NCBI RefSeq assembly: GCF_054482595.1
Contig: NZ_CM137008.1
Direction: 5' to 3' (one strand)
DNA: 64,000 bases
Below the pieces are notes generated by a model. That model made no database searches. It was given only the letters and a program-made list of their open reading frames with translations, and was not told the origin of the DNA. Below are positions 1 through 15,192 of the stretch, one piece after another (the first letter of the stretch is position 1; each line of letters starts with the position of its first letter). A program made the position numbers and the translations under genes.

Positions 1-431
1 AACTGGCTCGTAAAGAAGATATGCAACTGAGTGCTCATATTAACCCAGAGACATTTGACGTTGAGTTAATTGATGAGAAGGGATCTGTCATTAATCGTAA
101 GTTACTATCTGCCGGTGAAAAGCAGATTTATGCCATTGCTATTCTTGAGGCGCTAGCAAAAACTTCTGGTCGTGATTTGCCGGTGATTATTGATACGCCA
201 TTAGGACGTCTGGATTCACAACATCGGGATAAACTAATTAACCATTATTTCCCATTTGCCAGCCATCAAGTGGTGCTATTGTCTACCGATACGGAAGTGG
301 ATGAACGTTATTTTGTTGACCAATTACGTGATGATATTTCTCATGCTTACGAGATAGTATTTAACACGCATACTAAATCATCAGCGTTGAAGCCCGGTTA
401 TTTCTGGGAATTAACTAAGGAGGCTATCTGA
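1..431 (+). CDS. dndD: DNA phosphorothioation protein DndD, C-terminal part (gene starts upstream of window)
   Basis: Frame is open from position 1; translation contains SMC/ABC-type signature LSAGEKQ followed by D-loop-like IIDTPLGRLD, as remembered for DndD C-termini. Stop TGA at 429-431 overlaps the dndE ATG (TGATG). Confidence 0.75.
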   Translation, partial: LARKEDMQLSAHINPETFDVELIDEKGSVINRKLLSAGEKQIYAIAILEALAKTSGRDLPVIIDTPLGRLDSQHRDKLINHYFPFASHQVVLLSTDTEVDERYFVDQLRDDISHAYEIVFNTHTKSSALKPGYFWELTKEAI

Positions 432-787
432 TGCTCCCGAATCGAATGGTGCTGAATCGTCAGACTGAAGAGCAGCTTAAAAGATTGAAAGGGTATACAG
501 GGATCACACCTAATGTCGCTGCCCGATTGGCATTTTTCCGCTCGGTGGAGAGTGAGTTTCGCTATTCATCAGAACGGGATAATCGGAAACTAGATGGTTC
601 GCTGGTGTTGGATAAGATTACGTGGCTGGGGGAGACATTACAGACTACGGAATTGGTATTGAAGATGCTTTATCCGCAGTTAGCTCAGAAGGATATGGTT
701 AAAGCATGGGCTGCGCATGTGGAGGATGGGATTGCGGCGTTAAGGAATCATAAGAGTCTATTAAACTTTATTAAATCAATAGATTAA
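431..787 (+). CDS. dndE: DNA phosphorothioation protein DndE (118 aa)
   Basis: Small protein directly coupled to dndD; motif GITPNVAARLAFFRS resembles the DndE family; size and position are typical for dndE as last gene of dndBCDE. Confidence 0.7.
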   Translation: MLPNRMVLNRQTEEQLKRLKGYTGITPNVAARLAFFRSVESEFRYSSERDNRKLDGSLVLDKITWLGETLQTTELVLKMLYPQLAQKDMVKAWAAHVEDGIAALRNHKSLLNFIKSID

Positions 788-795
788 GAATTTTT

Positions 796-826
796 AGGCC
801 ATCCAAATTAACAATATGGATGGCCT
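796..826. terminator. Perfect 10-bp inverted repeat (aggccatcca / tggatggcct, 11-nt loop) between convergent dndE and DGQHR genes; possible bidirectional terminator or RNA-stabilising hairpin
   Basis: Inverted repeat read directly from sequence; no clean U-run on either side, so terminator function is uncertain. Confidence 0.35.
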
Positions 827-845
827 GAACAAAATTTAGTCAATT

Positions 846-2006
846 TTAAAAATCTGTTTTGACATTTTCGTTTAAATAATCATATATTTTTCGCTGACCC
901 ACAGTTGTTGATGTATACTCTGTATTTTTTGTAAACTCCTCAGGATTCACAGTTTTCAATGCAGAGCACAGCTTTTCAATATTTTCTTTGTTAATTTTAG
1001 GCATGTCCATCAATTTTTTACGTAGAAACTGAAATAATGCAGAAATACCGACAGATCTAACTAACACTGTGCCTTTCTCAATACATACATTAGCCCAAAA
1101 ATGATCTTTTATCGCTGAAAAATAAATTTTCAATATTTGCTCTATCGCCTTATCATTGCCTTTTATATAAAACCATCGCAATGGGCTTTTATCCTTGCTG
1201 TTTTTATTATCAAGCCTGCCCCTTCCTTTTTCTTTTTCATCCGAATCAATTGCATTGATGGTATATCTATCAGCACGAGGGTTTTTAGATATTAGTGATA
1301 ATACACCATCAATAAATACAGACGATGATATAGACCAGTCATTTTCAGTAATTTCATTCAATACTCTATTTTTTAATCGTCTGTAGAAAGGATATTCATC
1401 TGTTTTATTAAATTTCTCACTAAAATATACAGCAAGCAAATCAGGAGGCCAATACTCTCTGGATATATCATCAAGAGAGTATCCAAAGAGTCTATATGCT
1501 AAACTTTTAGGAACTTTTTGTTGGTTAAAATTAATTGTTGAAAATATAGTTGCTTGATTGGATGGTGGTAATGAGTTATAAATTGAACAAGGTAATTGAA
1601 TATCTTTATTCTTAGCATACTTAAATCCTAATAATCTGTGCTGTCCATCGATAATAGAACATAATCTTAGATTTATATTCGGTATTATTATCTTATATAA
1701 TCAATTCTCACTTTTTTTAAACTCCCATTTGTCATCTTCCTTTGCAGGTGTACCATCTTCATTATGATTGACAGAGAGTATGATTGAGTTTGGAAATGCA
1801 GCCTCATCGGAGTCTATGAATTTTGCTATGTCTAAGGCTCTTGGCATAGACTCTTTCCTCTGCACACCTGATATTTCCCCATCATCCATTTCCGCCTGAT
1901 TCACATAAATACATTTCAATAAATCTTCGGCAGACATAACCGTCTGAAAGAATTCGCCGTATGGTTGGGTGACCTTAATTGCATGGATCTCAATAGAATT
2001 AGACAT
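846..2006 (-). pseudogene. DndB-like DGQHR-domain protein interrupted by an in-frame TGA (codon 102, plus-strand 1701-1703); possibly pseudogene, readthrough gene or sequencing error
   Basis: Minus-strand frame is continuous from ATG at 2006 to stop at 846-848 except for one TGA; N-terminal part has DndB-like AIKVTQPYGEFFQTVM and GVQR motifs, and the region just after the stop reads CSIIDGQHRLLGF (DGQHR signature). Very AT-rich. Confidence 0.65.
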
Positions 2007-2525
2007 TTATAGCCCCTCACCTGGCTCATCATTAGAACTCATATTCCTTAATTCATCAGACACTAATGAATCTGGAGTTACAGGGATTTTAAAATCAGGC
2101 TTAACAACGGTAATGGAAAACCATAATATTATAGTTATAATAAGTGATGAAATTAACATGAAATTGACGTCATTTTTTAATCCAAAAAATAAAAAAACAA
2201 ATGATATGAACCATAAAAATATTGAACAAGATATTCTAACTTGTTTACGGTGCCTTTCAGATAAAGAAATAGGATTTTCGTTCTCGTCATCTCTGGATAA
2301 ACACTCCGCGGCTAATACGCCCAATGTGGTAATAATAAATGAAAAAATAGAAAAACCCAACTGCGTATTATCTTTTAAAAATAATGGGCCAATCCATATT
2401 CCGCAGGTTGATACAAATAATGTCACCAAAGATATAAAAATAAATTTTGGCTGAATAATTCTTGGATATAATCCTAAGATATCTTTCCACAAGTTCACCC
2501 AATGTATCATATCATTTCTCGACAT
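2007..2525 (-). CDS. Small hydrophobic protein with about 4 predicted transmembrane helices (172 aa), function unknown
   Basis: ORF with four long hydrophobic stretches; its TAA stop (2007-2009) directly abuts the ATG of the DGQHR gene (translational coupling); AGGG Shine-Dalgarno-like sequence upstream; 37 bp downstream of the dptH stop on the same strand. Confidence 0.5.
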   Translation of the reverse strand: MSRNDMIHWVNLWKDILGLYPRIIQPKFIFISLVTLFVSTCGIWIGPLFLKDNTQLGFSIFSFIITTLGVLAAECLSRDDENENPISLSERHRKQVRISCSIFLWFISFVFLFFGLKNDVNFMLISSLIITIILWFSITVVKPDFKIPVTPDSLVSDELRNMSSNDEPGEGL

Positions 2526-2562
2526 GCTTTTTACCCTAACCTTGTACTATCTACAAAAATAA

Positions 2563-5500
2563 TCAAAAAACAAGCTCCCAAAACGCTCTATCTCGCATCT
2601 TGCTAACCCGCTTATCCCCATCAACATACAGACTGAAATGTTTTTCAAGCTGCCGAATCTGCCCCATTAACGACTCCTGTTCGCCCTTATCATCCACGTT
2701 GAATACAGCCTTGATATCCGCATTTTTAATTTCGGACACACGATGAATAACCCAGGTTAGAATATATGAAGCGTAATTGTTCTCTCCAGTTTTGAAGTGG
2801 GTAATTTCCTGCGTTGACAGGATCGCTCCAACACCATATTCACGACCTTCCTTAAGGATCTTCCTCAGACTGGAAAAGTCCTGGCGCATAAAGTTATCTG
2901 CCTCATCCACCAGAATCATCTTGGTGAGCTGACGATAATCCCCCTGAATCACTGGCTTGCCGCGTTTTTGCATTTGTGCATAAAACAGATCCAGGGTTAG
3001 CGCAACCACCAGGTTTTGAATCTCTGATGAGTAGCCAGCCAATTCGATAACTGTGACACCATCCACCAGATCATACAGACTCGTCATTTTCTCTGGGTCT
3101 GTTTCAAATATCTGAAACCCAGCTAAGTTATAAAGCGCGGCGTACAATGAGTCTTCTTCTACTTTTTCCTGAGCCAGATATCGCTGCCACACATCTTCTA
3201 TGGTCGGTGCAACACGGTTCCAGGTTGAGCGATCATGAGGCACTATTCCTGCTAATTCATAGCACTCCATGATTAGCGTAACCAGTTTCATACGCTGTTT
3301 CACACCCAGGTTATAGGCTTTCCCCATTGTTTCAGAAAATGCGATTGCGGTATGTCTGGGTAACATGGGCATATCACCAAACAGTGACAAAGGGTTATAA
3401 GGTAGTAACGATAATTGATATTTCTTACCGCCAGTAGCCTTCAGAAAAGCCTCGTCCACATAGTCAGATTTATAATCAAAGATCAGTAAACCAATCGATT
3501 TTCCATCAACGTTACAGGATTGGTTACGCATTAATTGTGTCACCAGCGATTTGGTAAATTGCGTTTTCCCGGTCCCCATCGTACCGATGATGCCTGTGTT
3601 GGTATTCATAAACTTCGTGGTGTTGGTCGGTTCCCAGAATAACGGGGTTTGCCGTGTAGCGTCATGACCAAATAATACTTGTAAGGGTACAGTGCTGACC
3701 TCTGGTGTCGGCTTTGGAATATCAGGTCGTGTGTCTGGCGGTGTCGTTACCTGCACTCCCGATGCTGATGGAGATGGGTGCTCATCACTCTCTGGCTTCA
3801 GACGGTATTTATCTGGTACCCGGTAGCGTTCAGCCAATGGCAATTTACCTTCACGGGTAGTGATTAACGAGGATAGTAATGAATAAGGAATTTCGATCTG
3901 TAAGATATTCGCTGTCGTCTCTTTATAGGAGAGATCGAAGCAAGATCCGCTGTCTACATGTGCAACAACAAAGCCATTAGCATAGTCTTTTAACTCACCC
4001 AACTGATAGTCACCGGTCAACCACCATTCGCGGCGATCCAACAGGGGAGCCAGCTTATCACTGTCCAGCACACCGTACAGCTGAAGTTTCTCTACCTGCA
4101 TCAGCACCTGTCGAATAAAGAGCGCGCGATAAAGTTGCGATGCCAGTGTATGCGGCTCCAGAATATCCTGCTGTAAATAACGTTTAAGCTCAGCAGCCTG
4201 CTGGCCCGCATAGTTGTAATCTGGTCGAGCGCCGGTTTTGACTTCCAGCGGCAGTAAATAGAGACGGTTTTCTTTAAAACCAACAAAGAGCACATCATCA
4301 GAGATTGCGCCTTTACGGTACCCCTGTAGATTTCTTGATAAATCGCTTTCCTTCATCTTTAGCCCGACGTTACCAGATACGCGAATCATTTCGGCTACAG
4401 ATAGCGGTACCCAGCAGATATCAGACTCACTCAGCATGGACTGTACAAATTTATACGCGCCAATGATGCCATATTTCTCTTTGCGCTCTTTTTCACTGGA
4501 GCGCAACATCTTCAGCAACCACTCACCGTTAAAAGCATTAAATTCGGCAAGTAGATGCTGGCTATCAACGGCAGATTGCCCGGACTGGCTTTCGGTCTGG
4601 AGCAGGCGGAGGAATAGATCGACCTGCTTCGTTACCGTCACTGCATCGTAGCCTGCACAACTAGTGTACTGATCGGAATAGTGGATCAGCACAACATCTT
4701 TCTGGCTAGTAAAGAAGTCAAGAGTAACTTTAGGGTCAATAATGGTGGTCCAGAGTGCACTGTTGTAAGAATAATTGAGTAGCTGTTTAAAATTGCCGCT
4801 TACGGCCAATCCAATCCCTTGTCCGTGGTATTGACTGTTGCTCTGACGCGCTGGCTGCCACAGGCAGCCCACTAACCGGGCAAGTCGTAGAGCGCAGTAA
4901 GATTCAGTATCAACATTCCGCAGGCCAAACGCGGTAAAGTAAGCATCCCCCTGTGTTTCAGCTCCTTCTCCGGAAATCAGCCCATGACACAGTACACCGC
5001 TGGCAGCATCCTCAATGCGGATCTGGCGGCAATCCACCGGAGCTGTATTGGTGAAAAACGCCAAATGTGCATAGGCCAATTTGTCGCTTTCTGACGGCAG
5101 GACAAATTTGCTGAACGTTAACCGACTGCGTAACAGGTCAATCAGCATATCGGCCTCAGCTCGCCACGCACCGCGGTTCAGGTCAAGGTCGTTTTTAAGC
5201 TGTTCATAGCTGCCACTCTCGGCAAAGCGATCAAACATATTTGGCAGCAGGCGTTCATCGTAGCAATTTACATGCACCGAAATAGCATGCTCTTTTTCCT
5301 GCTTAAAATATTCCACTAACCCCAGAAACAGTTCTTTCGCTGTTCCCTGATTAATAGCATTAATAATCAATGCATTGTTTCCGGGACTCTGAAATAGCCG
5401 GGCGTAGGCTTCGGTAAATTCATTGAGCTTGTCTTTTACCAAACGTTTTACGTAATCGTGGCTCACCTGGCGCTGGGGAACGACATCGATCCAGAAGCGA

Positions 5501-7638
5501 TTTTCTTCCACCGGCTGCAACTGTGCGTATTCGTGTTCACTGTGGTAAACGAATGGCATCAAGCCGGACACCACCAGACGATCAAGCGTAATGGTCGGTA
5601 GTGTGGCAAATGACGCTGAGTCGTATTGTTCCTGCTCTGCGCAGATAGTTTGTACCAGTTGTAAATGGTAGGCCAACACTAGGGGATGCAACGGGGAGAG
5701 ACGTTCATGACTGTCGACATTACAAATACCCAGATGCAGCAGGCGCTTTTCCTGCGCTGTTAACGCTCTGCTCAACTCGATTTGTTGAAGCGCCTGTTCA
5801 AAGGTCGTCACTATATGGCTTACCAGCGCGCAGTATTCTGCTGACCACGATACTAGGCTAGGTAAAGTACCGCAGCGCTGGTAGTAGAGGAATAATTGGT
5901 CGTAGGCGTTATAGAGATCGGGGTGGATGGCAACGAGTTCATCCAGCGCAAACGCGCTATCGTCATCTCCTGTCCCCAAAAGACGTTGATCAACTAATGA
6001 GGCTTCCAGCGCCAGTAACTGCTGGCGAACACCGACAACCTTGTGTTCGGTATTATCAAGAATGATACGACCCTTCAATCGGTTCCAGGACGCATTCCCG
6101 TCTTCTTTGAACAGTTTATTGAAACGACTCTGGTCAAAAAGTAGCGGTAAGGTTAACCCTTCTTCGGCTCCCGGCCCTTCGATATTGAATGCCAGACAAG
6201 AATCACCTGAAACAAGCTTAAATTGGATCAGATCGCTTTGATTTGCCAGTGTTTCAAAATTCACCAATGCATAATGCTGGCAGTCAATATCACCATTTTC
6301 TTCATCCAGTATACAGACTTGGCTACCCGACTCAGCGATTCGTAGTTCGTTGTCTTCGCGTTGGAGTGTGATTTGTGGTTTACCTGGCTCGATACGGAAA
6401 CAATGCTGAATATCGTCTAGCCAGAATTGTCCTTGTCTGACCAGTAACAGGCGGAACTTGTACTCTTCGGCTGAATTATTGCGATTAGTCAGTTCGAGGC
6501 TAAAGAAGCAGGGATTCCCATCGAAAGGAACCGACGCCATAATACGGGAGCTTTTACCCCCTGCACGACTAATTCGCCAGAAACGCTCTTTTTTTAACTG
6601 ACGATGATGCGCAATTTTTATCTGGTTATCCTGAAGATCGTTGCCCTGAAAGCAAAACTCCAGCTCAGTTTGCGATTGTTCGGGTGGTACCTGTACCAGT
6701 AGGCTGATATCGCGCTTGCCTGCTTTACTTGCGCTTTTCGCCCGTTGCCAAATCACGCCATTTTCGACCGTGATATCATCCAGTACCAGTTTTTGTTCGC
6801 GGTTCTGTTCTTTTTCGTTTAGATAAACAGCGAAATCAAGCTCGCGCCAGTCGTCTTTATCATTGAAATGTTCCTGAATAAATTTGGCGCTGAATTCAGT
6901 TAATACGTTCTCCAGTTGCCCACTGTAGCGTTCAACGCTGTCCTCGATTTGACGAAATAACTTCCTGTTTTCATTCAGTCGGGTATGGAGCTGTTTCTGG
7001 CTAAAATTCAGTAGTTCATCATCTTTAAACAGCGATAGCTCGGAGAAATCCAGATTGCCGTCATCCAGCAGGCGATACAACGACGAGAAGCCAAATACGG
7101 TCGCACCTTCATCCAGTACCGTTGTTCGTTGATCCTTTAATAAGCAACGCGACAACTCTGAACGGTTGTTGTCCGTCGTGATCAACTTTTCCAATTCATG
7201 ACTGAAGGTTTCGGGGTGCCAGATAGCTCCCGGTGCCGCGACGTCTTTTGTGCTGTTAATCAGGGTGTCCAGCATGCTGTTATGAATAATCAGCAGTGCA
7301 GTTTTGGCAAACACCCCGCTGCGGCCAGCAACTTCATCGCGTAAATGGGATATGTAGTTTTCCGTGAATGCTGGCGCTGCGGCTCCGTGCAGCACCGGAA
7401 TAAGCTGAATACCATTACAGGAGAGACAGGCAAGGCGCTGCTCTGGCGCAATTTCCAGATGATTGTCACCTGCCAGGTCAACAAAAGCCTGCCAGAGTTG
7501 TAGAGCATTGTCAGGGTCAGGAGATTTAAACTGGTAACGCTCACCAGGTTGAATAATGCCACTAACCCATTCAATAAAGGTTTCCGCCAGATAGGTTTCA
7601 TACTGTTTTACGGACATACACGGCGTCTCCACTGTCAC
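2563..7638 (-). CDS. dptH: DptH/DndH-like large ATPase/helicase-type protein of the phosphorothioate-dependent restriction module (1691 aa)
   Basis: 5076-bp ORF with Walker A (GIIGTMGTGKTQF) and Walker B-like (ILVDEADNF) motifs; third gene of a three-gene operon adjacent to dndDE; gene sizes match what I recall for dptFGH of Salmonella/E. coli dnd islands. Start may be the downstream ATG at 7617. Confidence 0.75.
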   Translation of the reverse strand: MTVETPCMSVKQYETYLAETFIEWVSGIIQPGERYQFKSPDPDNALQLWQAFVDLAGDNHLEIAPEQRLACLSCNGIQLIPVLHGAAAPAFTENYISHLRDEVAGRSGVFAKTALLIIHNSMLDTLINSTKDVAAPGAIWHPETFSHELEKLITTDNNRSELSRCLLKDQRTTVLDEGATVFGFSSLYRLLDDGNLDFSELSLFKDDELLNFSQKQLHTRLNENRKLFRQIEDSVERYSGQLENVLTEFSAKFIQEHFNDKDDWRELDFAVYLNEKEQNREQKLVLDDITVENGVIWQRAKSASKAGKRDISLLVQVPPEQSQTELEFCFQGNDLQDNQIKIAHHRQLKKERFWRISRAGGKSSRIMASVPFDGNPCFFSLELTNRNNSAEEYKFRLLLVRQGQFWLDDIQHCFRIEPGKPQITLQREDNELRIAESGSQVCILDEENGDIDCQHYALVNFETLANQSDLIQFKLVSGDSCLAFNIEGPGAEEGLTLPLLFDQSRFNKLFKEDGNASWNRLKGRIILDNTEHKVVGVRQQLLALEASLVDQRLLGTGDDDSAFALDELVAIHPDLYNAYDQLFLYYQRCGTLPSLVSWSAEYCALVSHIVTTFEQALQQIELSRALTAQEKRLLHLGICNVDSHERLSPLHPLVLAYHLQLVQTICAEQEQYDSASFATLPTITLDRLVVSGLMPFVYHSEHEYAQLQPVEENRFWIDVVPQRQVSHDYVKRLVKDKLNEFTEAYARLFQSPGNNALIINAINQGTAKELFLGLVEYFKQEKEHAISVHVNCYDERLLPNMFDRFAESGSYEQLKNDLDLNRGAWRAEADMLIDLLRSRLTFSKFVLPSESDKLAYAHLAFFTNTAPVDCRQIRIEDAASGVLCHGLISGEGAETQGDAYFTAFGLRNVDTESYCALRLARLVGCLWQPARQSNSQYHGQGIGLAVSGNFKQLLNYSYNSALWTTIIDPKVTLDFFTSQKDVVLIHYSDQYTSCAGYDAVTVTKQVDLFLRLLQTESQSGQSAVDSQHLLAEFNAFNGEWLLKMLRSSEKERKEKYGIIGAYKFVQSMLSESDICWVPLSVAEMIRVSGNVGLKMKESDLSRNLQGYRKGAISDDVLFVGFKENRLYLLPLEVKTGARPDYNYAGQQAAELKRYLQQDILEPHTLASQLYRALFIRQVLMQVEKLQLYGVLDSDKLAPLLDRREWWLTGDYQLGELKDYANGFVVAHVDSGSCFDLSYKETTANILQIEIPYSLLSSLITTREGKLPLAERYRVPDKYRLKPESDEHPSPSASGVQVTTPPDTRPDIPKPTPEVSTVPLQVLFGHDATRQTPLFWEPTNTTKFMNTNTGIIGTMGTGKTQFTKSLVTQLMRNQSCNVDGKSIGLLIFDYKSDYVDEAFLKATGGKKYQLSLLPYNPLSLFGDMPMLPRHTAIAFSETMGKAYNLGVKQRMKLVTLIMECYELAGIVPHDRSTWNRVAPTIEDVWQRYLAQEKVEEDSLYAALYNLAGFQIFETDPEKMTSLYDLVDGVTVIELAGYSSEIQNLVVALTLDLFYAQMQKRGKPVIQGDYRQLTKMILVDEADNFMRQDFSSLRKILKEGREYGVGAILSTQEITHFKTGENNYASYILTWVIHRVSEIKNADIKAVFNVDDKGEQESLMGQIRQLEKHFSLYVDGDKRVSKMRDRAFWELVF

Positions 7639-8923
7639 TCATTCGCTCCACATTTCCCATACGTTCATAAAACGCTACCAGCGTTTGTGCCGACTGGTTA
7701 TCCAGATAAAATCCGCGCTGTTCAAAGCCGCGCAGCAACTCATGCAGGCGTAGTTTGTCATTTTTACCCACAGTGAGATTGGTCAGCAGCAGCAGACGAT
7801 CCTGATTCAGTACCAGTACTTTTCCCGCCCGACCACGTACCTGAATGAAATCGGTGCAGATCTGGGTTTCAAGCTCGTTGATGTATTTCCGGTTAACTGT
7901 CGCACGATCAGATTTCTTATCCTGAAACTGTTCAACAGCAACGGTTAATAATTGTTTAAAAGCTTCTTCCAGCGTAACGGCTTGCGTATACTTCGATGCC
8001 GAAAGCTCGCGTTTTTCGATAAACTCCTGCAAATAATTATTGAGATCTTGCAGTAATTGAGATGAGTTATCAGAAAAATTTAAGCAATCCTGATAGACCT
8101 GCCAGAGTGGACGCTTCTTATCTCCTTTTATTTGTAGAACTTCCAGCGCGGAGAGTATTGGGAAAAGTTTTTCACTTTGACGAGCGAACCACTTATAACC
8201 AAAGCGTTTTATTTGATCCCGTTCAGAACTGGCTTTTTCAGTGTCGAGAATAAAGAAAAGCGACTTACTTTGTGGCTCGCCGTCCTGCCAGTTGTCCAGA
8301 TTGAGCGCTAGCTGGGCACACCAGCTAAAGGCATATAAACGCAGAGTATTAGTCAGTTCTTGTAACAAATATTGAGGGTGTTCTGCCAAAAACGCCAGAT
8401 CAGACTGAAAACAAGTCACCAGATAGGGAAGGTAGGGTTGTTCTTCAGAGAATGGGCCTTTTCCCAATAACTTTATTTTTTCATTGAGCTTATTTAGCAT
8501 TTGCTGCTCAATGAAGTTCAGCTTATCCTGGATAGGATATTCCAAGCTGAAATCTCCCATTAGATTAGCAAACAGAGTGCCAAGGCGTTTATCGGCCATT
8601 GAAGCGCCACTTATTTTTTCGCCATCAAACTGAGCATGAAATAGTAAAAAAAGCGGAGATACACGAAAGATATCTTCACTGGAAAAATACATCCGTTCCA
8701 GTACAGTCCAGAATGCTGGTTCATCAAGCAATTCTTGCAAATGAGCCTTGCAATCATCGCGAAATTGACTGGGAGTATAGGCATCAATTTTACGCTTCAG
8801 GGCGTAACTAAGCACCAATCCGGTGACAAATTGCCAGTTAATATCATTGTTTTTGTTACGTATCGGCAGATAACTATCCAGTTGATTATTACCTACTTTT
8901 AACGTCGTTGCGATAGGGTACAT
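7598..8923 (-). CDS. dptG: DptG/DndG-like protein (441 aa)
   Basis: 1326-bp ORF between dptF and dptH on the same strand, 4-nt gap from dptF stop; size and context match dptG. Confidence 0.7.
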   Translation of the reverse strand: MYPIATTLKVGNNQLDSYLPIRNKNNDINWQFVTGLVLSYALKRKIDAYTPSQFRDDCKAHLQELLDEPAFWTVLERMYFSSEDIFRVSPLFLLFHAQFDGEKISGASMADKRLGTLFANLMGDFSLEYPIQDKLNFIEQQMLNKLNEKIKLLGKGPFSEEQPYLPYLVTCFQSDLAFLAEHPQYLLQELTNTLRLYAFSWCAQLALNLDNWQDGEPQSKSLFFILDTEKASSERDQIKRFGYKWFARQSEKLFPILSALEVLQIKGDKKRPLWQVYQDCLNFSDNSSQLLQDLNNYLQEFIEKRELSASKYTQAVTLEEAFKQLLTVAVEQFQDKKSDRATVNRKYINELETQICTDFIQVRGRAGKVLVLNQDRLLLLTNLTVGKNDKLRLHELLRGFEQRGFYLDNQSAQTLVAFYERMGNVERMSDSGDAVYVRKTV

Positions 8924-8927
8924 TCCA

Positions 8928-10577
8928 CTAACCCTCCATACCGCTAATGGTGATCATGTCGTCGTCCGCTTTAGCGCGATAAACTCGCCGCCCACCAGCA
9001 TAAAACTTGATTTCGCTGCTGGATTTGGCCTGTTCAGTAATCAAATCAACGATTTCGTCCAGTAGAACAATGGCATTTTTATCGTATTTATTGGGGCGAT
9101 AGCCATTGTTTAATTTGTTCAAAAGTTCAAATAAATTAAGTCCGATACGAACTGGTAACAGAGAGTTTTGCCCAACTTTTAAATGCACGTCGAAGCCAGT
9201 AGGGTGGGCCGTATTTTTATTGCGGATGGCCTCCCAGTCAGGTTTCAATTCGACTGGCGCGGTTATTTTTACCCCACCATATTCACCTAAAAAGAACTCT
9301 TCTTTTTGCATACTCAATTCCGGCGCTTTGCGGTTTGCATAGCGCTGAATACCAGCAATAAGTTCGGATGTATAAAACCGGTTCAGTGCTTTTTTCTGCT
9401 CTGAGTCAGCGATGTAATTTTTGTGCAGATGCCAGATTTCTGAATAATGCTCAAATAAAGATTCATTGAAGAATACGGAAAATTTCTGATGATAATTATT
9501 CCCCAGAGATTCATCCTGCAGCAACCAGAAGAGCCGAATTAATGAAGCCGCATCACCCGGATTAACGCACTGGCGATCAAATCTAATGTGTAATGGCGCG
9601 AGTGCAGCTAAAAAATCATCCAGTTCAGGGTCAACCAGGCCCAATTCGTAGCGCAAAATAAACTGATCGATTTCATAGGTGTGCAGCCTAGCAGGATCAA
9701 AATCAGAAACTTTTTTAATCAGGTCGTTTTCTGCCCCAGTGAAAAGATTATCAAATAAATACCCCGGCCCCATAAGCAAATGATGCAGAAAATCCAATAG
9801 AGTTCGGGTTGTCACAAACTGATCTTTAATCAGGCGGGCCTTAAAGAGCTGAGTGATGAGAACATCCTGAACACCCGGCAGACAAAGTAATTTATAGTTA
9901 GCAACTTCTTTCAGCTCAGGGTTAACGGTCTCATCATGTCGAAAAATAAACTGAAACAAATTACTATCATCATTACGGGTTAAATTATCCAGTAATGTTT
10001 TAATAAACGATGAATACTGTTTTTTTTCATTAAACTGGAATTTAGGGTAATGCTCAAAGTCAAAAAAAGAACAATGCCCACTGCGGTATGGGCGGCTTTC
10101 TTCCTGATCTGCTGACAAGAAAGAATCGATCGCAGTGCGGATCGCCAGATGGCATTCAGCACCTTCTCTGGCAAAATTGGCGAGCATCCCGGTATTGATG
10201 CCTATAAGCAAAGGAGATGAGTATTGGTGATGATTGCTAAATAAATCATTTAAAGCATCAATAGCTGATTGCCGGGGAGCAAAGCTGTGTGTTGCATCCA
10301 GATGAAAACTAAAGCGCTGCTGATAACGAGGGTTTGACTTACAACGGGTCAAAATTTCGGACTTTCCATCACCACTACTGCCACACAAAAAGATGATTTC
10401 ACCGGGCTTAGCAACATCCAGATAACGTTGCAGCTCAGTTTCAATTTCTTGTTTAACAAAGAGTTGTTCTTTTAACTGATCGAACTCATCCTTTTGACGA
10501 TGCGTTACCGTGGTTACGGAAAACGAAGATGACTTCGCAAGTACACCCAACGCTTTACGTAATGTGATTGCGCTCAT
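8928..10577 (-). CDS. dptF: DptF/DndF-like P-loop ATPase (549 aa)
   Basis: 1650-bp ORF with Walker A-like motif FLCGSSGDGKSEI; first gene of the operon, preceded by an AT-rich 5' region. Confidence 0.7.
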   Translation of the reverse strand: MSAITLRKALGVLAKSSSFSVTTVTHRQKDEFDQLKEQLFVKQEIETELQRYLDVAKPGEIIFLCGSSGDGKSEILTRCKSNPRYQQRFSFHLDATHSFAPRQSAIDALNDLFSNHHQYSSPLLIGINTGMLANFAREGAECHLAIRTAIDSFLSADQEESRPYRSGHCSFFDFEHYPKFQFNEKKQYSSFIKTLLDNLTRNDDSNLFQFIFRHDETVNPELKEVANYKLLCLPGVQDVLITQLFKARLIKDQFVTTRTLLDFLHHLLMGPGYLFDNLFTGAENDLIKKVSDFDPARLHTYEIDQFILRYELGLVDPELDDFLAALAPLHIRFDRQCVNPGDAASLIRLFWLLQDESLGNNYHQKFSVFFNESLFEHYSEIWHLHKNYIADSEQKKALNRFYTSELIAGIQRYANRKAPELSMQKEEFFLGEYGGVKITAPVELKPDWEAIRNKNTAHPTGFDVHLKVGQNSLLPVRIGLNLFELLNKLNNGYRPNKYDKNAIVLLDEIVDLITEQAKSSSEIKFYAGGRRVYRAKADDDMITISGMEG

Positions 10578-10794: not shown

Positions 10795-10975
10795 TAAATA
10801 TTACCCCCGATTGATTTTCGCATAGTCAAACAGCGTAATCGATCTCTCCCTATTCGCATCCAGAAAATCAGCCCACCATACTGCAAATCAGCTCGCGCTC
10901 ATCCAGATGTTCTGCCTTATGGATATACGCCCCCTTACCGATGTGACTCATCTGACGTTCAGCCGCTTTATCTCA
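10795..10975 (-). pseudogene. Decayed 3' fragment of a P4-type integrase gene (remnant of a second int copy)
   Basis: About 180 bp with roughly 75-80 percent identity (by eye) to the 3' end of the intact integrase gene at about 13930-14110 (for example gcatccagaaaatc...ttatggatatacgc...ctcatctgacgttca shared); same orientation; 5' two-thirds of the gene absent. Confidence 0.6.
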
Positions 10976-11072
10976 TGTTGTTCTGGTCTCAATACTTCCA
11001 TGCCGTTGCAATTACCTCTTAAACCAGCCCTTACCATTTTTATGGGTACGATAAGAAAACTTTATCGGGCAC

Positions 11073-11103
11073 GATCGATTTTATCGATCGATTCGATCGA
11101 AAA
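11073..11103 (+). promoter_or_regulatory. Cluster of three GATC sites inside tandem tcgatcgat-like repeats, about 90-115 bp upstream of the outer-membrane protein gene
   Basis: GATC at 11073-11076, 11086-11089 and 11095-11098, each inside CGATCG; read directly from sequence. Regulatory role is hypothetical. Confidence 0.3.
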
Positions 11104-11189
11104 CATTCCTTTTACCTTATCTTTTTCATGGTCTTAGAATGAGCAACCCCATTTATCGTTCGGGGAAAGTGATAGCGGAGATGATTGAA

Positions 11190-11930
11190 ATGAATAAGGT
11201 TATTGCGGTTTCAGCGCTTGCCATGGCAGGCATGTTTTCGACCCAGGCTCTGGCTGATGAAAGCAAAACAGGCTTTTATGTGACCGGTAAAGCAGGTGCT
11301 TCTGTTATGTCACTTGCAGACCAGCGTTTCCTGTCGGGGGATGGAGAGGAAACATCAAAATATAAAGGCGGTGATGGCCATGATACGGTATTCAGTGGCG
11401 GTATCGCGGCCGGTTATGATTTTTACCCGCAGTTCAGTATTCCGGTTCGTACGGAACTGGAGTTTTACGCTCGTGGAAAAGCTGATTCGAAGTATAACGT
11501 AGATAAAGACAGCTGGTCAGGCGGTTACTGGCGTGATGACCTGAAGAATGAGGTGTCAGTCAACACACTGATGCTGAATGCGTACTATGACTTCCGGAAT
11601 GACAGTGCATTCACACCATGGGTATCTGCAGGGATTGGCTACGCCAGAATTCACCAGAAAACAACCGGTATCAGTACCTGGGATTATGGGTACGGAAGCA
11701 GTGGTCGCGAATCGTTGTCACGTTCAGGCTCTGCTGACAACTTCGCATGGAGCCTTGGCGCGGGTGTCCGCTATGACGTAACCCCGGATATCGCTCTGGA
11801 CCTCAGCTATCGCTATCTTGATGCAGGTGATAGCAGTGTGAGTTACAAGGACGAGTGGGGCGATAAATATAAGTCAGAAGTTGATGTTAAAAGTCATGAC
11901 ATCCTGCTTGGTGTGACTTATAACTTCTGA
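11190..11930 (+). CDS. Outer-membrane beta-barrel protein, Hek/Tia/Hra-like adhesin/invasin family suspected (about 246 aa precursor)
   Basis: Start chosen at internal ATG 11190 preceded by GGAG at -12; typical signal peptide MNKVIAVSALAMAGMFSTQALA then DESK; alternating aromatic/glycine-rich beta-strand pattern; C-terminal YNF with terminal Phe typical of OMP beta-barrels. Family name is from memory only. Confidence 0.65.
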   Translation: MNKVIAVSALAMAGMFSTQALADESKTGFYVTGKAGASVMSLADQRFLSGDGEETSKYKGGDGHDTVFSGGIAAGYDFYPQFSIPVRTELEFYARGKADSKYNVDKDSWSGGYWRDDLKNEVSVNTLMLNAYYDFRNDSAFTPWVSAGIGYARIHQKTTGISTWDYGYGSSGRESLSRSGSADNFAWSLGAGVRYDVTPDIALDLSYRYLDAGDSSVSYKDEWGDKYKSEVDVKSHDILLGVTYNF

Positions 11931-12103
11931 CGACACTGCTCCTGAACGATAATACGTATATTTAGCAATTAAGATAATTGCGTATCTTCTGCAATTAAAC
12001 AGAAATACCCTGCAGTCTATTACTGCAGGGTTATCTGTTTCACAGATAATTTCTGATTTTTATTATCCTGTTCTCTTCATCATAATGTTGTCGATATACT
12101 CCG

Positions 12104-13603
12104 ATGAATATCAGAAAACTGTTTTGTCCGGGAAACACACCCCGGATTTTATTGTTTTTATTCTTTTTTGTTGTTTCTGCAATAACCACAATTGCATGCG
12201 GATACACTGAGAAGAATGCCACAGGAAATGTGCTGCTTCTGTTTCTCCTTCTTCTCCTTGCACACAGAAATACCCTCACATCCATTACAGCGCTGTTATT
12301 TCTGTTCTGTTGTGCACTGTATGCGCCTGCGGGTATGACGTACGGTAAAATCAACAACAGTTTTATTGTCGCGTTGCTGCAGACCACGGCTGATGAGGCT
12401 GCAGAGTTTACCGGGATGATTCCTGTTTATCATTTTCTGGTCAGTGCCGCGATTCTGGTATTCATGGTGATTTTCTGGCGGACACACCACCGCGGTCACC
12501 GTAACTGGCTGGCACTGCTGCTATTCGTATTATGCTCTGTAAACAGCTGGCCGTTGCGGATGGTTAAAGGAACTGTTGTGGGGACAACTGACACATTGCG
12601 TGAAATGCAGCGTTATAAACAACTGAGTCAGCACGGGGCTGATAACTGGAAAATCCTGCCGGGTGTGCCGTTGTATGACACGATTGTTATCGTTACTGGT
12701 GAGAGTGTGCGCAGGGATTATATGTCGGTATATGGCTATCCCGTGCCAACCACGCCGTGGCTGAATACTGCTCCCGGTTTATTTATTGACGGCTATACAT
12801 CGACAGCAGCCAGTACCGTACCTTCCCTGAGCCGGACACTGATTTATGACTATGAGCAGAACCCTGACTCCGGCAACAACGTGGTGGCGCTGGCAGCAAA
12901 AGCAGGATACAGCACATGGTGGATATCCAATCAGGGAAAACTGGGAGAGCATGACACACGCATCTCTGTTATTGCTTCTGATGCGGAGCATACCGTTTTC
13001 CTCAAGAAAGGCAGCTTCGCTTCCCGTAAAACGGATGACATGTTGTTGTTACAGGAAACAGAACGTGCGCTGGCGGATAAATCCTCGCCGAAGGTGATTT
13101 TCCTGCACATGATTGGCTCTCATCCGAATCCGTGTGACCGACTTAACTCCTGGCCGAATTATTACCTGGAGCAGTATCCCCGAAAGATTGCCTGTTACCT
13201 CGCCAGCATCAGTAAACTGGATAACTTTCTCGGTCAGCTTGATGGTATCCTTCGCCGGCATTCCCGTCACTTTGCAATGCTTTACTTTTCTGACCATGGG
13301 CTGTCGGTCAGCGACAGTGCTAATCCTGTTCATCATGATGGTCATGTGCAGGGGGGCTACAGCGTTCCCCTGATTATTACCGCCAGTGACATCACGTCTC
13401 ATCAGTCCGTCAGCAGGAAAATCAGTGCCCGTAATTTCGCAGGCATTTTTCAGTGGCTGACCGGTATTCGTACCGAAAATATAACGCCATTCAATCCGCT
13501 GACAGACGAAGATAATGAACCCGTTATGGTTTTTAACGGAGAGAAAAATGTGCCGGCAGACAGTCTGAAACCGCAGCCACTTATTCTTCCGGACCACAGG
13601 TAA
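12104..13603 (+). CDS. Inner-membrane sulfatase-family / phosphoethanolamine transferase-like protein (YhbX/YjgX-like, 499 aa)
   Basis: N-terminal hydrophobic helices followed by a periplasmic domain with motifs IVTGESVRRDY, HMIGSHPNP and LYFSDHG, typical of the alkaline-phosphatase-superfamily PEA transferases; position next to the leuX integrase matches the K-12 yjgX locus. Confidence 0.6.
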   Translation: MNIRKLFCPGNTPRILLFLFFFVVSAITTIACGYTEKNATGNVLLLFLLLLLAHRNTLTSITALLFLFCCALYAPAGMTYGKINNSFIVALLQTTADEAAEFTGMIPVYHFLVSAAILVFMVIFWRTHHRGHRNWLALLLFVLCSVNSWPLRMVKGTVVGTTDTLREMQRYKQLSQHGADNWKILPGVPLYDTIVIVTGESVRRDYMSVYGYPVPTTPWLNTAPGLFIDGYTSTAASTVPSLSRTLIYDYEQNPDSGNNVVALAAKAGYSTWWISNQGKLGEHDTRISVIASDAEHTVFLKKGSFASRKTDDMLLLQETERALADKSSPKVIFLHMIGSHPNPCDRLNSWPNYYLEQYPRKIACYLASISKLDNFLGQLDGILRRHSRHFAMLYFSDHGLSVSDSANPVHHDGHVQGGYSVPLIITASDITSHQSVSRKISARNFAGIFQWLTGIRTENITPFNPLTDEDNEPVMVFNGEKNVPADSLKPQPLILPDHR

Positions 13604-13926
13604 TCATATATGGCAAACTGTAATACAGTCTCTTGTACTGAAAAGGATTCTGTATAGAATAGAACCTGTATTCATATCAGCACAAGGGACCACCAAATCC
13701 CGGCAACATTCCTTACGTCAGTTATCCCGCATCACCCTGTGGGTGCGGGATTTTTTATGATGTTTCTTTTTATTGAATATATATAAATAACGAATAACTG
13801 CGGATTCTGATAATCCACCTGCAGGGAGCAATCCGGTAAACATTTAATACATCAGTTAATATCGTTTTGCCTTTTTAACAAAGAAAATATTCATGGAGTA
13901 AGTTCCCGGGCATTTGCCCGGGATGA

Positions 13927-15192
13927 TTACTGTTTTAATGGATTATTAATCTTTGCATATTCAAATGGACTGATAAATTTTTCTCTGTTTGCATCCAGAA
14001 AATCGGCCCACCATTGTAGCATCAAGCGGCGTTCTTCCAGATGCTCTGCTTTATGGATATACGCGGCCCTCACTGAATTTCGCTCCATGTGGCTCATCTG
14101 ACGTTCAACAGCATCACGAGACCACAAACCTGATTCGACCAATGAACTACAGGCCATTGTTCGAAAGCCATGACCACAAACCTCTACTTTTGTATCATAC
14201 CCCATGACCCGTAACGCACTATTTACCGTATTCTCACTCATGGGTTTGTGCGAATCGTGATCACCAATAAATATCAAGTCATGGGCCCCACAAAACTGTT
14301 TTATCTGCTTTAAAATTGCAAGAGCTTGCGTTGAAAGAGGCACTAGATGCGTTGTACGCATTTTTGAGCCTCTATGGGAATGTTTCACTCCAGGAATAGG
14401 CTCCCGCTCCGGTGGGATAGTCCATATAGACGCTTCGAAATCGATCTCTGACCAACGAGCAAAACGCAGCTCACTGGACCGAATAAAGATCAGCAAAGAG
14501 AGTTCTGTCGCCCATCGGGTTAGCGGCCTACCAGTATAGCTATCTATTTTTGTAAGCAACTCAGGGATGCGCTTTAATTCAAGCGCGGGACGATGTTGTC
14601 GATTACAGGAAGCAACCGCCCCAGCCATCTCTTGTGCCGGGTTATAATCAATTAACCCACTTTGCACTGCATAGCGCATGATGGCTGTAGTGCGCTGCTG
14701 AAGACGAGCGGCCACTTCAAGACGTCCAGACATTTCTACGGCCTTAATGGGTGCTAATAAATCTCGAGTTTTTAACTCAGCGATATTACGTTCACCAAGC
14801 GCTGCAAAAAGATTATCTTCCAGACTTTTTAGCACACGATGGGCGTGATCTTCAGACCACTTTTTATTGGTGCCATGCCACTCAATCGCGACTTCTTTAA
14901 AGGTTCGTGCTTTACTCTGTTCAACCTTATCATTTTTCTTTTTGTCTCCCGGATCGACGCCATTCGCAAGCAGCTTACGCGCCTCGTCACGACGTACTCT
15001 GGCATCCGCTAGTGTGATTTCAGGATAAACCCCAAGTGCCAGCATTTTTTGCTTTCCCTCATAACGGTACTGCAAACGCCAGTACTTAGAACCATTTGGA
15101 TGGACAAGCAGATGCATACCGCCACCATCAGTCAGCTTATATTGCTTATCCGTTGGCTTGGCTGCTCTGACTTTGATATCTGTTAATGCCAT
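13927..15192 (-). CDS. intB: P4-type tyrosine recombinase/integrase (IntB-like, 421 aa)
   Basis: Translation MALTDIKVRAAKPTDKQYKLTDGGGMHLLVHPNGSKYWRLQYRY... is a typical P4-family integrase N-terminus, with C-terminal catalytic region motifs (HGFR, Y near the C-terminus); start is adjacent to the 3' end of tRNA-Leu. Confidence 0.85.
   Translation of the reverse strand: MALTDIKVRAAKPTDKQYKLTDGGGMHLLVHPNGSKYWRLQYRYEGKQKMLALGVYPEITLADARVRRDEARKLLANGVDPGDKKKNDKVEQSKARTFKEVAIEWHGTNKKWSEDHAHRVLKSLEDNLFAALGERNIAELKTRDLLAPIKAVEMSGRLEVAARLQQRTTAIMRYAVQSGLIDYNPAQEMAGAVASCNRQHRPALELKRIPELLTKIDSYTGRPLTRWATELSLLIFIRSSELRFARWSEIDFEASIWTIPPEREPIPGVKHSHRGSKMRTTHLVPLSTQALAILKQIKQFCGAHDLIFIGDHDSHKPMSENTVNSALRVMGYDTKVEVCGHGFRTMACSSLVESGLWSRDAVERQMSHMERNSVRAAYIHKAEHLEERRLMLQWWADFLDANREKFISPFEYAKINNPLKQ

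Follow-up and report, generated by a model that had tools for sequence, protein, structure and literature searches.

A conserved gene pair encoding a membrane protein and a DGQHR protein accompanies Dnd phosphorothioate systems and carries a nonsense codon in most Escherichia coli copies

This work concerns two adjoining genes in a 64,000-nucleotide stretch of Escherichia coli DNA (contig NZ_CM137008.1 of NCBI RefSeq assembly GCF_054482595.1; the whole stretch is referred to as the window), which encode a small membrane protein and a protein with a DGQHR domain, and which lie between the last gene of the DNA phosphorothioate (PT) modification operon dndBCDE and that of the restriction operon dptFGH. 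That the two genes form a conserved accessory module of Dnd phosphorothioate systems is well supported, and the survey described below shows that the pairing of the two genes is obligate and that their linkage to dnd is independent of dptFGH and of dndB. The name of the DGQHR protein and its association with dnd were known already, while the membrane partner and the pair as such are described here for what appears to be the first time, no earlier description having been found. Interest at the level of the family is tempered by the state of the copy in the window, whose DGQHR gene is best read as a pseudogene.

Distribution of the pair and its linkage to dnd

In a scan that took one genome per species, 80 loci encoding a DGQHR protein of this family were collected, and these span more than ten phyla, with members among the Gamma-, Beta-, Delta- and Epsilonproteobacteria, Bacteroidota, Acidobacteria, Nitrospira, Deinococcus, Verrucomicrobia, Lentisphaerae, Chloroflexi, Gemmatimonadota and others. 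Upstream sequence was present in 78 of these loci, and in 77 of them the DGQHR gene is preceded by an abutting open reading frame (ORF) that encodes 140-280 aa and in most cases four predicted transmembrane (TM) helices, the distance from the end of this ORF to the DGQHR start ranging from -16 to +36 bp. The reverse check gave the same association, as all four membrane-family hits that were picked by profile search alone have a PF14072 gene directly downstream. A dndC or dndD gene was found within the 10-kb flanks of 72 of the 80 loci; six of the remaining eight are cut by contig ends, while two (L028 and L076) have full 10-kb flanks and no dnd genes. On the other hand, dptH was present in only 29 loci and dndB in only 30, which leaves about 50 of the 80 without DndB within 10 kb. 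Neither dptH nor dndB occurs in 28 loci in which dndC, dndD, a further gene and the pair (membrane gene, then DGQHR gene) follow one another on one strand, or in which the pair comes directly after dndD and the further gene lies beyond it (L009); in the three such loci that were examined (L015, L034 and L009) this further gene encodes DndEi, in which a DndE domain is joined to a HerA/VirB4-like ATPase. In four loci dndB comes immediately after the pair, in the same orientation. The view that the pair is an ancient, phylum-spanning and regular companion of dnd, and not of dptFGH or dndB, is thus well supported by this distribution.

Comparison of closely related islands indicates how the pair is maintained. 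Enterobacterales islands with DptF/G/H and DndB/C/D/E proteins that are 75-97% identical to those of the window carry DGQHR proteins that are just 34-45% identical and membrane proteins that are at most 24% identical to the window copies, and at least five pair lineages are found among them. The distance matrices of the membrane and DGQHR proteins are correlated at r=0.81 (partial r 0.76 once DndC is controlled for, and 0 of 999 permutations as high), whereas the correlation of each protein with DndC distance is only 0.46; furthermore, in 21 of 34 locus pairs with near-identical DndC the DGQHR distance exceeds 0.5. These distances show the pair to evolve as a unit, which is exchanged between islands that are otherwise near-identical. 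It has also been observed that in 66 of 70 loci the G+C content (GC) of the pair is below that of the dnd/dpt genes next to it, with a median gap of 4.9 points, and AT-richness is therefore a trait of the cassette family and not specific to the locus in the window. The initial annotation of the window had taken the low GC to suggest an insert of separate acquisition; what stands of this proposal is the exchange of cassettes just described, the pair being in other respects an ancient and regular dnd companion with a family-wide low GC.

The position that the pair occupies in enterobacterial islands is shared with other genes. In Salmonella Cerro 87 the same slot is taken by dndI (DUF262 plus HNH), which is reportedly co-transcribed with dndFGH and, together with IscS-DndBCDE, provides a defence that senses PT (PMC11662687). 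A second type of E. coli dnd-dpt island has no membrane-DGQHR pair and carries, at the same place between dptH and dndE, a DUF262 protein and an ABC/OLD-type ATPase (L003 9253-11983 in PK8566; L004 9250-11980 in CFSAN061770); the former matches NsnA in PADLOC at E 1e-36 and also PD-T4-2_A, while the latter gives HEC-04, NsnB and GajA-like matches. This island type was examined in two genomes, and in 31 of the 155 genomes with a match, the match was limited to a short segment at the dptH end. Judged by their sequences, the slot-mates are cassettes built round a ParB/DUF262-type protein. In one gammaproteobacterial island (L091 6849-7991), a PIN_8 gene stands between dptH and the membrane gene, with insertion sequence (IS) elements downstream of the DGQHR gene.

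Rare copies of the pair outside dnd loci adjoin GHKL/HATPase_c_3 ATPases (L028 11343-15386; L076 6482-14872; L089/L090 11652-16447, the latter being the same Sphingobacterium contig as the truncated locus L031 with longer flanks). One of these GHKL ATPases has a BbrUII/HgiDII-like N-terminus, and L076 also contains a candidate HerA-type ATPase, as judged by eye. Such neighbourhoods hint that the pair can serve other defence-like settings. Directly downstream of the pair in DndEi-type loci, small gene pairs that resemble toxin-antitoxin systems were noticed by eye, namely what seems to be a nucleotidyltransferase motif, together with a small partner ORF, at L015 11245-11957 and two small ORFs at L009 11257-11887.

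Features of the DGQHR protein and its membrane partner

The translation of the DGQHR gene of the window, with a stop codon that is discussed below read as W for this and the other model scores of the product, matches TIGR04172 ('DNA phosphorothioation-associated DGQHR protein 1') at 472.3 bits against a cutoff of 450, residues 7-383 being aligned to positions 1-381 of the 381 in the model, and the score thus places it in the same family. The entry is a 'hypothetical equivalog' of uncharacterised function, and its definition does not include the membrane partner; the window copy differs from it in being truncated by the stop. The DGQHR domain model TIGR03187 is matched at 163 bits, above its cutoff and with the motif present, and the sole Pfam hit of the intact allele is to the DndB family PF14072 (E=2.8e-9), so that the DndB-like DGQHR character assigned initially to this gene is upheld by the family models. 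When a profile of 26 DGQHR relatives was aligned to a DndB profile with HHalign, about 283 columns, nearly the full length, were matched at a probability of 94.9%, an E-value of 4.8e-8 and 21% identity, yet iterated jackhmmer searches split the two families cleanly, with cross-scores of at most 32 bits compared to more than 350 within families. Because the profile match is nearly full length while the iterated searches keep the families apart, the DGQHR protein is a distant full-length paralog of DndB and not DndB itself.

Two more specific identities were considered and rejected. That of DndB proper was set aside given the absence of a DndB equivalog hit in NCBIfam and the separate jackhmmer family. 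Matches to DpdB were weak (77.1 bits in NCBIfam, over the N-terminal 212 residues only, and E 2.4e-20 in PADLOC), and the equivalog cutoff of 300 bits is far from being reached.

The invariant residues of the DGQHR family are Q49-R50, N80, D120-G-Q-H-R124 and T157-I-N..Q162, as would be expected for an active ParB/Srx-type nucleotide site. A fold search ranked ParB-CTP, ParB-CDP and sulfiredoxin-ATP structures at the top, weakly, while the family profile retrieved nothing at E<=0.01 among PDB chain sequences, including the solved DndI and SspE chains. A HEPN-type C-terminal nuclease has been reported for DndB (PMC3632139); in the alignment of the DGQHR family, no invariant His was noticed in the C-terminal half. 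A DUF1524/HNH nuclease domain is likewise absent from the DGQHR protein, for which Pfam returned PF14072 alone.

The membrane partner has four transmembrane helices, preceded by an amphipathic N-terminal helix and followed by an acidic C-terminal tail, and its AlphaFold2 model (mean pLDDT, the predicted local distance difference score, of 79) places the long hydrophobic helices at residues 26-50, 54-80, 88-117 and 122-140, between the N-terminal helix and the tail. The N-terminus and the TM2-TM3 loop are rich in K+R and the outer loops comprise just 3-7 residues, and because of this charge distribution and these very short outer loops the protein fits an N-in/C-in topology in the inner membrane. 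No Pfam, NCBIfam or PADLOC family was found for it, three distant relatives were likewise without a PADLOC hit, and a PDB fold search with the model gave nothing below E=1, merely generic helical bundles. The family is highly divergent, with a mean column identity of 12% and no invariant residue; its weak motifs are G..G[IV]W.P in TM1, T-Y in TM2 and a W in TM4, and its best-conserved position is a glycine of the tail (92%), which carries a conserved Gly-Gly motif. The alignment contains no invariant polar residue, which argues against a role as an enzyme. A profile search recovered 1069 representatives of 50%-identity clusters at E<=1e-3, of which 831 at E<=1e-10, all of them small, full-length proteins, indicating that the membrane proteins are a real family despite their divergence.

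The name 'accessory gene regulator B family' that RefSeq applies to such proteins was not accepted. The match to AgrB (PF04647) has an E-value of 3.6e-5 and covers only positions 80-182 of the 185 in the model, and the catalytic His and Cys of AgrB belong to the N-terminal half of that protein. A match at E<=0.001 was restricted to close relatives, being found in just 3 of 84 family members, beside scattered hits to unrelated membrane families, and no His or Cys is invariant across the family. RefSeq uses the AgrB name in most genomes and 'hypothetical protein' in strains with the intact DGQHR allele, including the one whose membrane protein is 98-99% identical to that of the window.

The Escherichia coli locus and its nonsense codon

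The first 10.6 kb of the window are an E. coli dnd island, as determined from ORFs together with NCBIfam and PADLOC models (Table 1). At the identical locus of E. coli W5-6, dndBCDE is followed by the pair and then by the oppositely oriented dptHGF, within an integrase-bounded island. Several elements of the initial annotation hold at this locus, among them a 172-aa protein with four hydrophobic helices, which the ORF and the AlphaFold2 model both recover, and a translationally coupled pair wedged between dndE and dptH, in which the TAA stop of the membrane gene (2009-2007) directly abuts the ATG of the DGQHR frame (2006-2004). The predicted distance of 37 bp from dptH, on the same strand, is also correct. 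The claim that the DGQHR gene is open over 386 codons is not, an in-frame TGA at codon 102 having been overlooked.

Table 1. Coordinates in the window of the gene pair and of neighbouring features of the dnd island
Feature	Position	Strand	Basis or remark
Membrane-protein gene, 172 aa, intact ORF, first of the pair	2007-2525	-	ORF
DGQHR gene (TIGR04172 family), 386 codons, disrupted	846-2006	-	Translation and family models
Nonsense codon TGA, codon 102	1701-1703	-	GGA (Gly) in the intact allele
D-G-Q-H-R motif codons, residues 120-124, downstream of the stop	1635-1649	-	Invariant columns
Spacer from dptH stop to membrane-gene start, 37 bp, with a purine-rich stretch ahead of the ATG	2526-2562	-	
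G+C-rich hairpin, 10-bp, between the 3' ends of two convergent genes, dndE and the DGQHR gene	796-826		Folding
dndD, 3' end	21-431	+	ORF and family models
dndE, last of dndBCDE, convergent with the pair	431-787	+	TIGR03184, 77.9 bits; RefSeq annotation of identical locus
dptH, last of dptFGH, directly upstream of the pair on the same strand	2563-7638	-	PADLOC DndH, 2854 bits; RefSeq annotation of identical locus
dptG	7598-8923	-	
dptF	8928-10577	-	

Because of the TGA, an ORF finder lists just two pieces of the DGQHR frame, 1701-2006 (101 aa) and 846-1439. The stop lies N-terminal to the DGQHR motif, there is no standard start between the two, and the next in-frame one, TTG at 1439, is past the motif. 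In E. coli RM8082 (pair at NZ_CP043825 4150554-4152233), the allele of which is 99.4% identical, codon 102 is GGA, a difference of a single base (A in the window versus C at position 1703 of the plus strand), and RefSeq annotates one protein of 386 aa under the name of the TIGR04172 family. It is for these reasons, namely that the TGA precedes the motif, that no start intervenes and that the intact allele has GGA, that the gene is read as a pseudogene, almost certainly a non-functional one. Allele-specific 41-mers searched across 5426 complete E. coli genomes identified 124 genomes with the pair, of which 109 have the TGA allele and 15 the intact GGA allele. Outside E. coli, Enterobacter JUb54 is another source of an intact pair. 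Recoding of the TGA, as for selenocysteine, was rejected, as the intact allele has Gly at this position and the column varies among homologs.

Most likely, then, the two-gene module is dead in this genome while its membrane gene is still intact. A plain loss of function, with a decaying remnant that contributes nothing here whatever the family does elsewhere, is very probable, given that the Gly codon lost to the TGA is at a non-conserved position and not at a conserved recoding site, that no standard start lies between stop and motif, and that the C-terminal fragment has received additional IS1 or IS66 insertions in some genomes; against it, the membrane ORF and the 101-aa N-terminal fragment are intact in genomes matching at 99.8-100% identity, and low-level read-through of the UGA is possible. 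This reading of the window copy is compatible with the explanations offered below for the family and does not compete with them.

In some E. coli with the TGA allele, the C-terminal remnant is also broken by IS66 (ISEc23) or IS1 (L093 1499-3915; L094 2268-2965), which fits decay following the nonsense mutation. Reference genomes of five other species (L072, L073, L075, L078 and L079) have the DGQHR gene as two separate ORFs, and disruption is therefore not limited to E. coli, although sequencing error is possible in these cases. The RefSeq annotation of the whole pair (846-2525, at L001 12067-13746) is inconsistent. It calls the 101-aa N-terminal fragment 'DndB' or 'ParB N-terminal domain-containing protein' and the C-terminal fragment 'DGQHR domain-containing protein', with a non-standard start (ATA at window position 1691) or in a 268-aa version from an Ile codon; no fragment of the broken gene carries a pseudogene flag. 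The names 'DndB', 'ParB N-terminal domain' and 'AgrB family' are thus misleading.

With respect to composition, the GC of the pair (846-2525) is 0.321, compared to 0.472 for dptH and 0.496 for the whole window, and the pair falls within the lowest 0.2% of the 1680-bp stretches of the window. The strong GC contrast with dptH noted initially is therefore real, while that with dndE was overstated, as dndD and dndE together have 0.421 instead of the supposed 47-50% for dndE. Co-transcription of the pair with dptFGH, which had been considered probable, is plausible because the genes are on the same strand across a 37-bp gap with no terminator-like site, a situation that parallels dndI; a consensus terminator scan of 400-3000 found no site in the spacer or elsewhere in that interval. 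At the other end of the pair, the hairpin at 796-826 (dG -19.6 and -21.0 kcal/mol, z = -4.3 and -5.4, with 0 of 200 shuffles equally stable) has no canonical U-tract and was missed by the consensus scan, and it is likely a bidirectional transcription stop. Past dptF, the region 10900-15192 contains an integrase remnant, genes for an Ail/OmpX-like outer-membrane protein (11139-11930) and a phosphoethanolamine transferase (12104-13603), and a full tyrosine recombinase gene on the minus strand (13927-15192); these genes, named as RefSeq annotates them at the identical locus L001, probably mark the island border.

Possible functions of the intact pair

It is proposed here, tentatively and with the chance of being wrong kept in view, that the intact pair forms a membrane-anchored, PT-reading accessory defence module. 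A defence role is favoured because the slot is common to DndI/Nsn-like cassettes, because diversification of the pair is decoupled from the Dnd enzymes, because the pair is recurrently lost, and because many 'orphan' dnd operons contain no genes other than modification genes and the pair. The DGQHR protein, a cytoplasmic protein of ParB/DndB fold with an invariant nucleotide-binding site, would act, by analogy with DndB, DndI, SspE and ParB-family proteins, as a DNA-binding switch driven by nucleoside triphosphate (NTP), which would read the PT status of DNA. The membrane protein would tether it at the inner membrane, probably via its cytoplasmic N-terminal helix, its TM2-TM3 loop or its Gly-Gly C-terminal tail. 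On DNA without PT, such as phage DNA entering at the membrane, the switch would remain engaged, itself blocking such DNA or else acting by way of the membrane protein. Such a module would represent a second defence arm that uses the DndBCDE mark independently of DptFGH, like Salmonella DndI, with the membrane protein in place of the HNH nuclease domain.

DndI of Salmonella Cerro 87 and SspE are PT-sensing DUF262 NTPases with an HNH nickase, and DndI sits in the same slot, downstream of dptH (dndH) and next to dndE. The pair resembles them in belonging to a ParB-like sensor superfamily (DGQQR there, DGQHR here) and in a distribution that depends on dnd and not on dptFGH, but it has no HNH/DUF1524 or other nuclease domain, it consists of two genes of which one encodes a membrane protein, and there is no match at the level of sequence to their solved chains. 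With DndB (TIGR03233/PF14072), the DGQHR protein shares a ParB-fold N-domain with the DGQHR motif and a helical C-domain, the homology extending over nearly the full length; it differs in that it is always accompanied by a membrane partner, which dndB is not, in that it is encoded here with the restriction operon, and in that it evolves independently of DndCDE, which DndB tracks. In the Kiwa system (KwaA/KwaB), a four-helix membrane protein is partnered by a cytoplasmic effector that binds DNA. In Noc, a ParB-family CTP switch couples DNA binding to membrane binding (cited in bioRxiv 10.1101/2025.10.10.680097). The likeness to Noc and Kiwa is one of architecture only, as no homology was detected and PADLOC gave no hit for either protein beyond the weak DpdB matches.

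Several points weigh against a defence role. No nuclease or other effector domain is recognisable in either protein with Pfam, NCBIfam or PADLOC, the membrane protein gives no hint of an effector chemistry, and the pair is absent from PADLOC-DB v2, apart from those DpdB hits. An AlphaFold2 model of both proteins as one fused chain, made with a Gly-Ser linker and a paired alignment of 26 rows and giving no interface metrics, reached a predicted template modelling score (pTM) of 0.46 with a disordered membrane-protein tail, so that the modelling lends no support to physical contact. The pair is dispensable in E. coli, since 109 of 124 genomes have the nonsense allele with dptFGH and dndBCDE unbroken, and evidently the membrane protein is non-toxic by itself. 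Its placement in dndC-dndD-dndEi operons that have no DndB fits DndB-like regulation equally well. Finally, no experiment on the TIGR04172 family or on the pair was found in the literature.

As to earlier descriptions, a 'DGQHR domain protein' between DptH and DptE in Serratia odorifera, strictly linked to dnd (7/7 genomes), was listed in 2011 (PMC3226654). The pair had been regarded in the initial annotation as foreign to described Dnd/Dpt systems, and this remains accurate in so far as no functional study was found, whereas the DGQHR protein was already named (TIGR04172) and linked to dnd by that list. No mention of the pair or of the membrane partner was found in the literature covered, which included a 2024 comparative reappraisal of Dnd (PMC10853773), a 2018 review and the DndI paper; subscription papers were partly outside this coverage, so an earlier description is possible.

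The main rival to a defence module is a membrane-tethered regulator of the DndB type, in which the DGQHR protein would limit or tune PT modification, by repressing dnd transcription or by consuming or sensing ATP, and would replace DndB where that is missing, its partner serving to localise or gate it. This explanation is unlikely, but it draws on full-length homology to DndB, itself an ATP-modulated repressor of dnd (PMC4507180), on the 28 loci with the dndC-dndD-(dndEi)-pair arrangement and the roughly 50 without DndB nearby, and on the four in which the pair directly precedes dndB. It accounts less well for the co-occurrence of canonical DndB with the pair in 30 of 80 loci, including the window, and for pairs that are 34-45% identical in islands where DndB is 92-97% identical, an odd pattern for a regulator that is matched to the operon it belongs to. 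Moreover, in Enterobacterales the pair is attached to the restriction operon and not to the modification operon, its slot is common to bona fide defence cassettes (PMC11662687), and two loci with full flanks have no dnd genes at all.

A quite improbable alternative would make the DGQHR protein an ATPase auxiliary to the modification machinery, helping DndCD(Ei) to insert sulfur, perhaps at a membrane-associated site. In the 7-deazaguanine system the DGQHR protein DpdB is reported to support DpdA. The weak DpdB matches of the family and its operon position after dndD/dndEi in systems without DndB would be in line with such a role, although the DpdB cutoff is missed by a wide margin and the exchange of cassettes is decoupled from DndC. 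The prevalence of the nonsense allele in E. coli, where the dnd genes are intact nonetheless, also makes a direct part in modification unlikely, and DndBCDE with IscS alone have been reported to give PT modification in E. coli B7A and Salmonella-type systems (PMC6435447).

To return to the proposed defence module, a restriction partner is said to be missing from about half of Dnd systems, and the role of such 'solitary' PT systems is a long-standing question. The presence of the pair in solitary-type dnd operons (28 of the 80 sampled species) and in the variable slot of DndI makes it a candidate for the missing partner or for a second regulator. Since most pair-bearing E. coli carry the nonsense allele, work on those strains would miss the function of the module. 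Independently of function, a sizeable membrane-protein family has been defined, with at least 831 clusters at 50% identity and no Pfam or NCBIfam model that covers it. The widest claim, that the pair is a widespread and unrecognised PT-dependent defence arm at the membrane, in which a ParB-fold NTP switch reads PT and signals to or works from its membrane partner, is somewhat doubtful at present; if true, many orphan dndC-dndD-dndEi operons without DptFGH, DndI or Pbe would have a restriction or abortive-infection partner.

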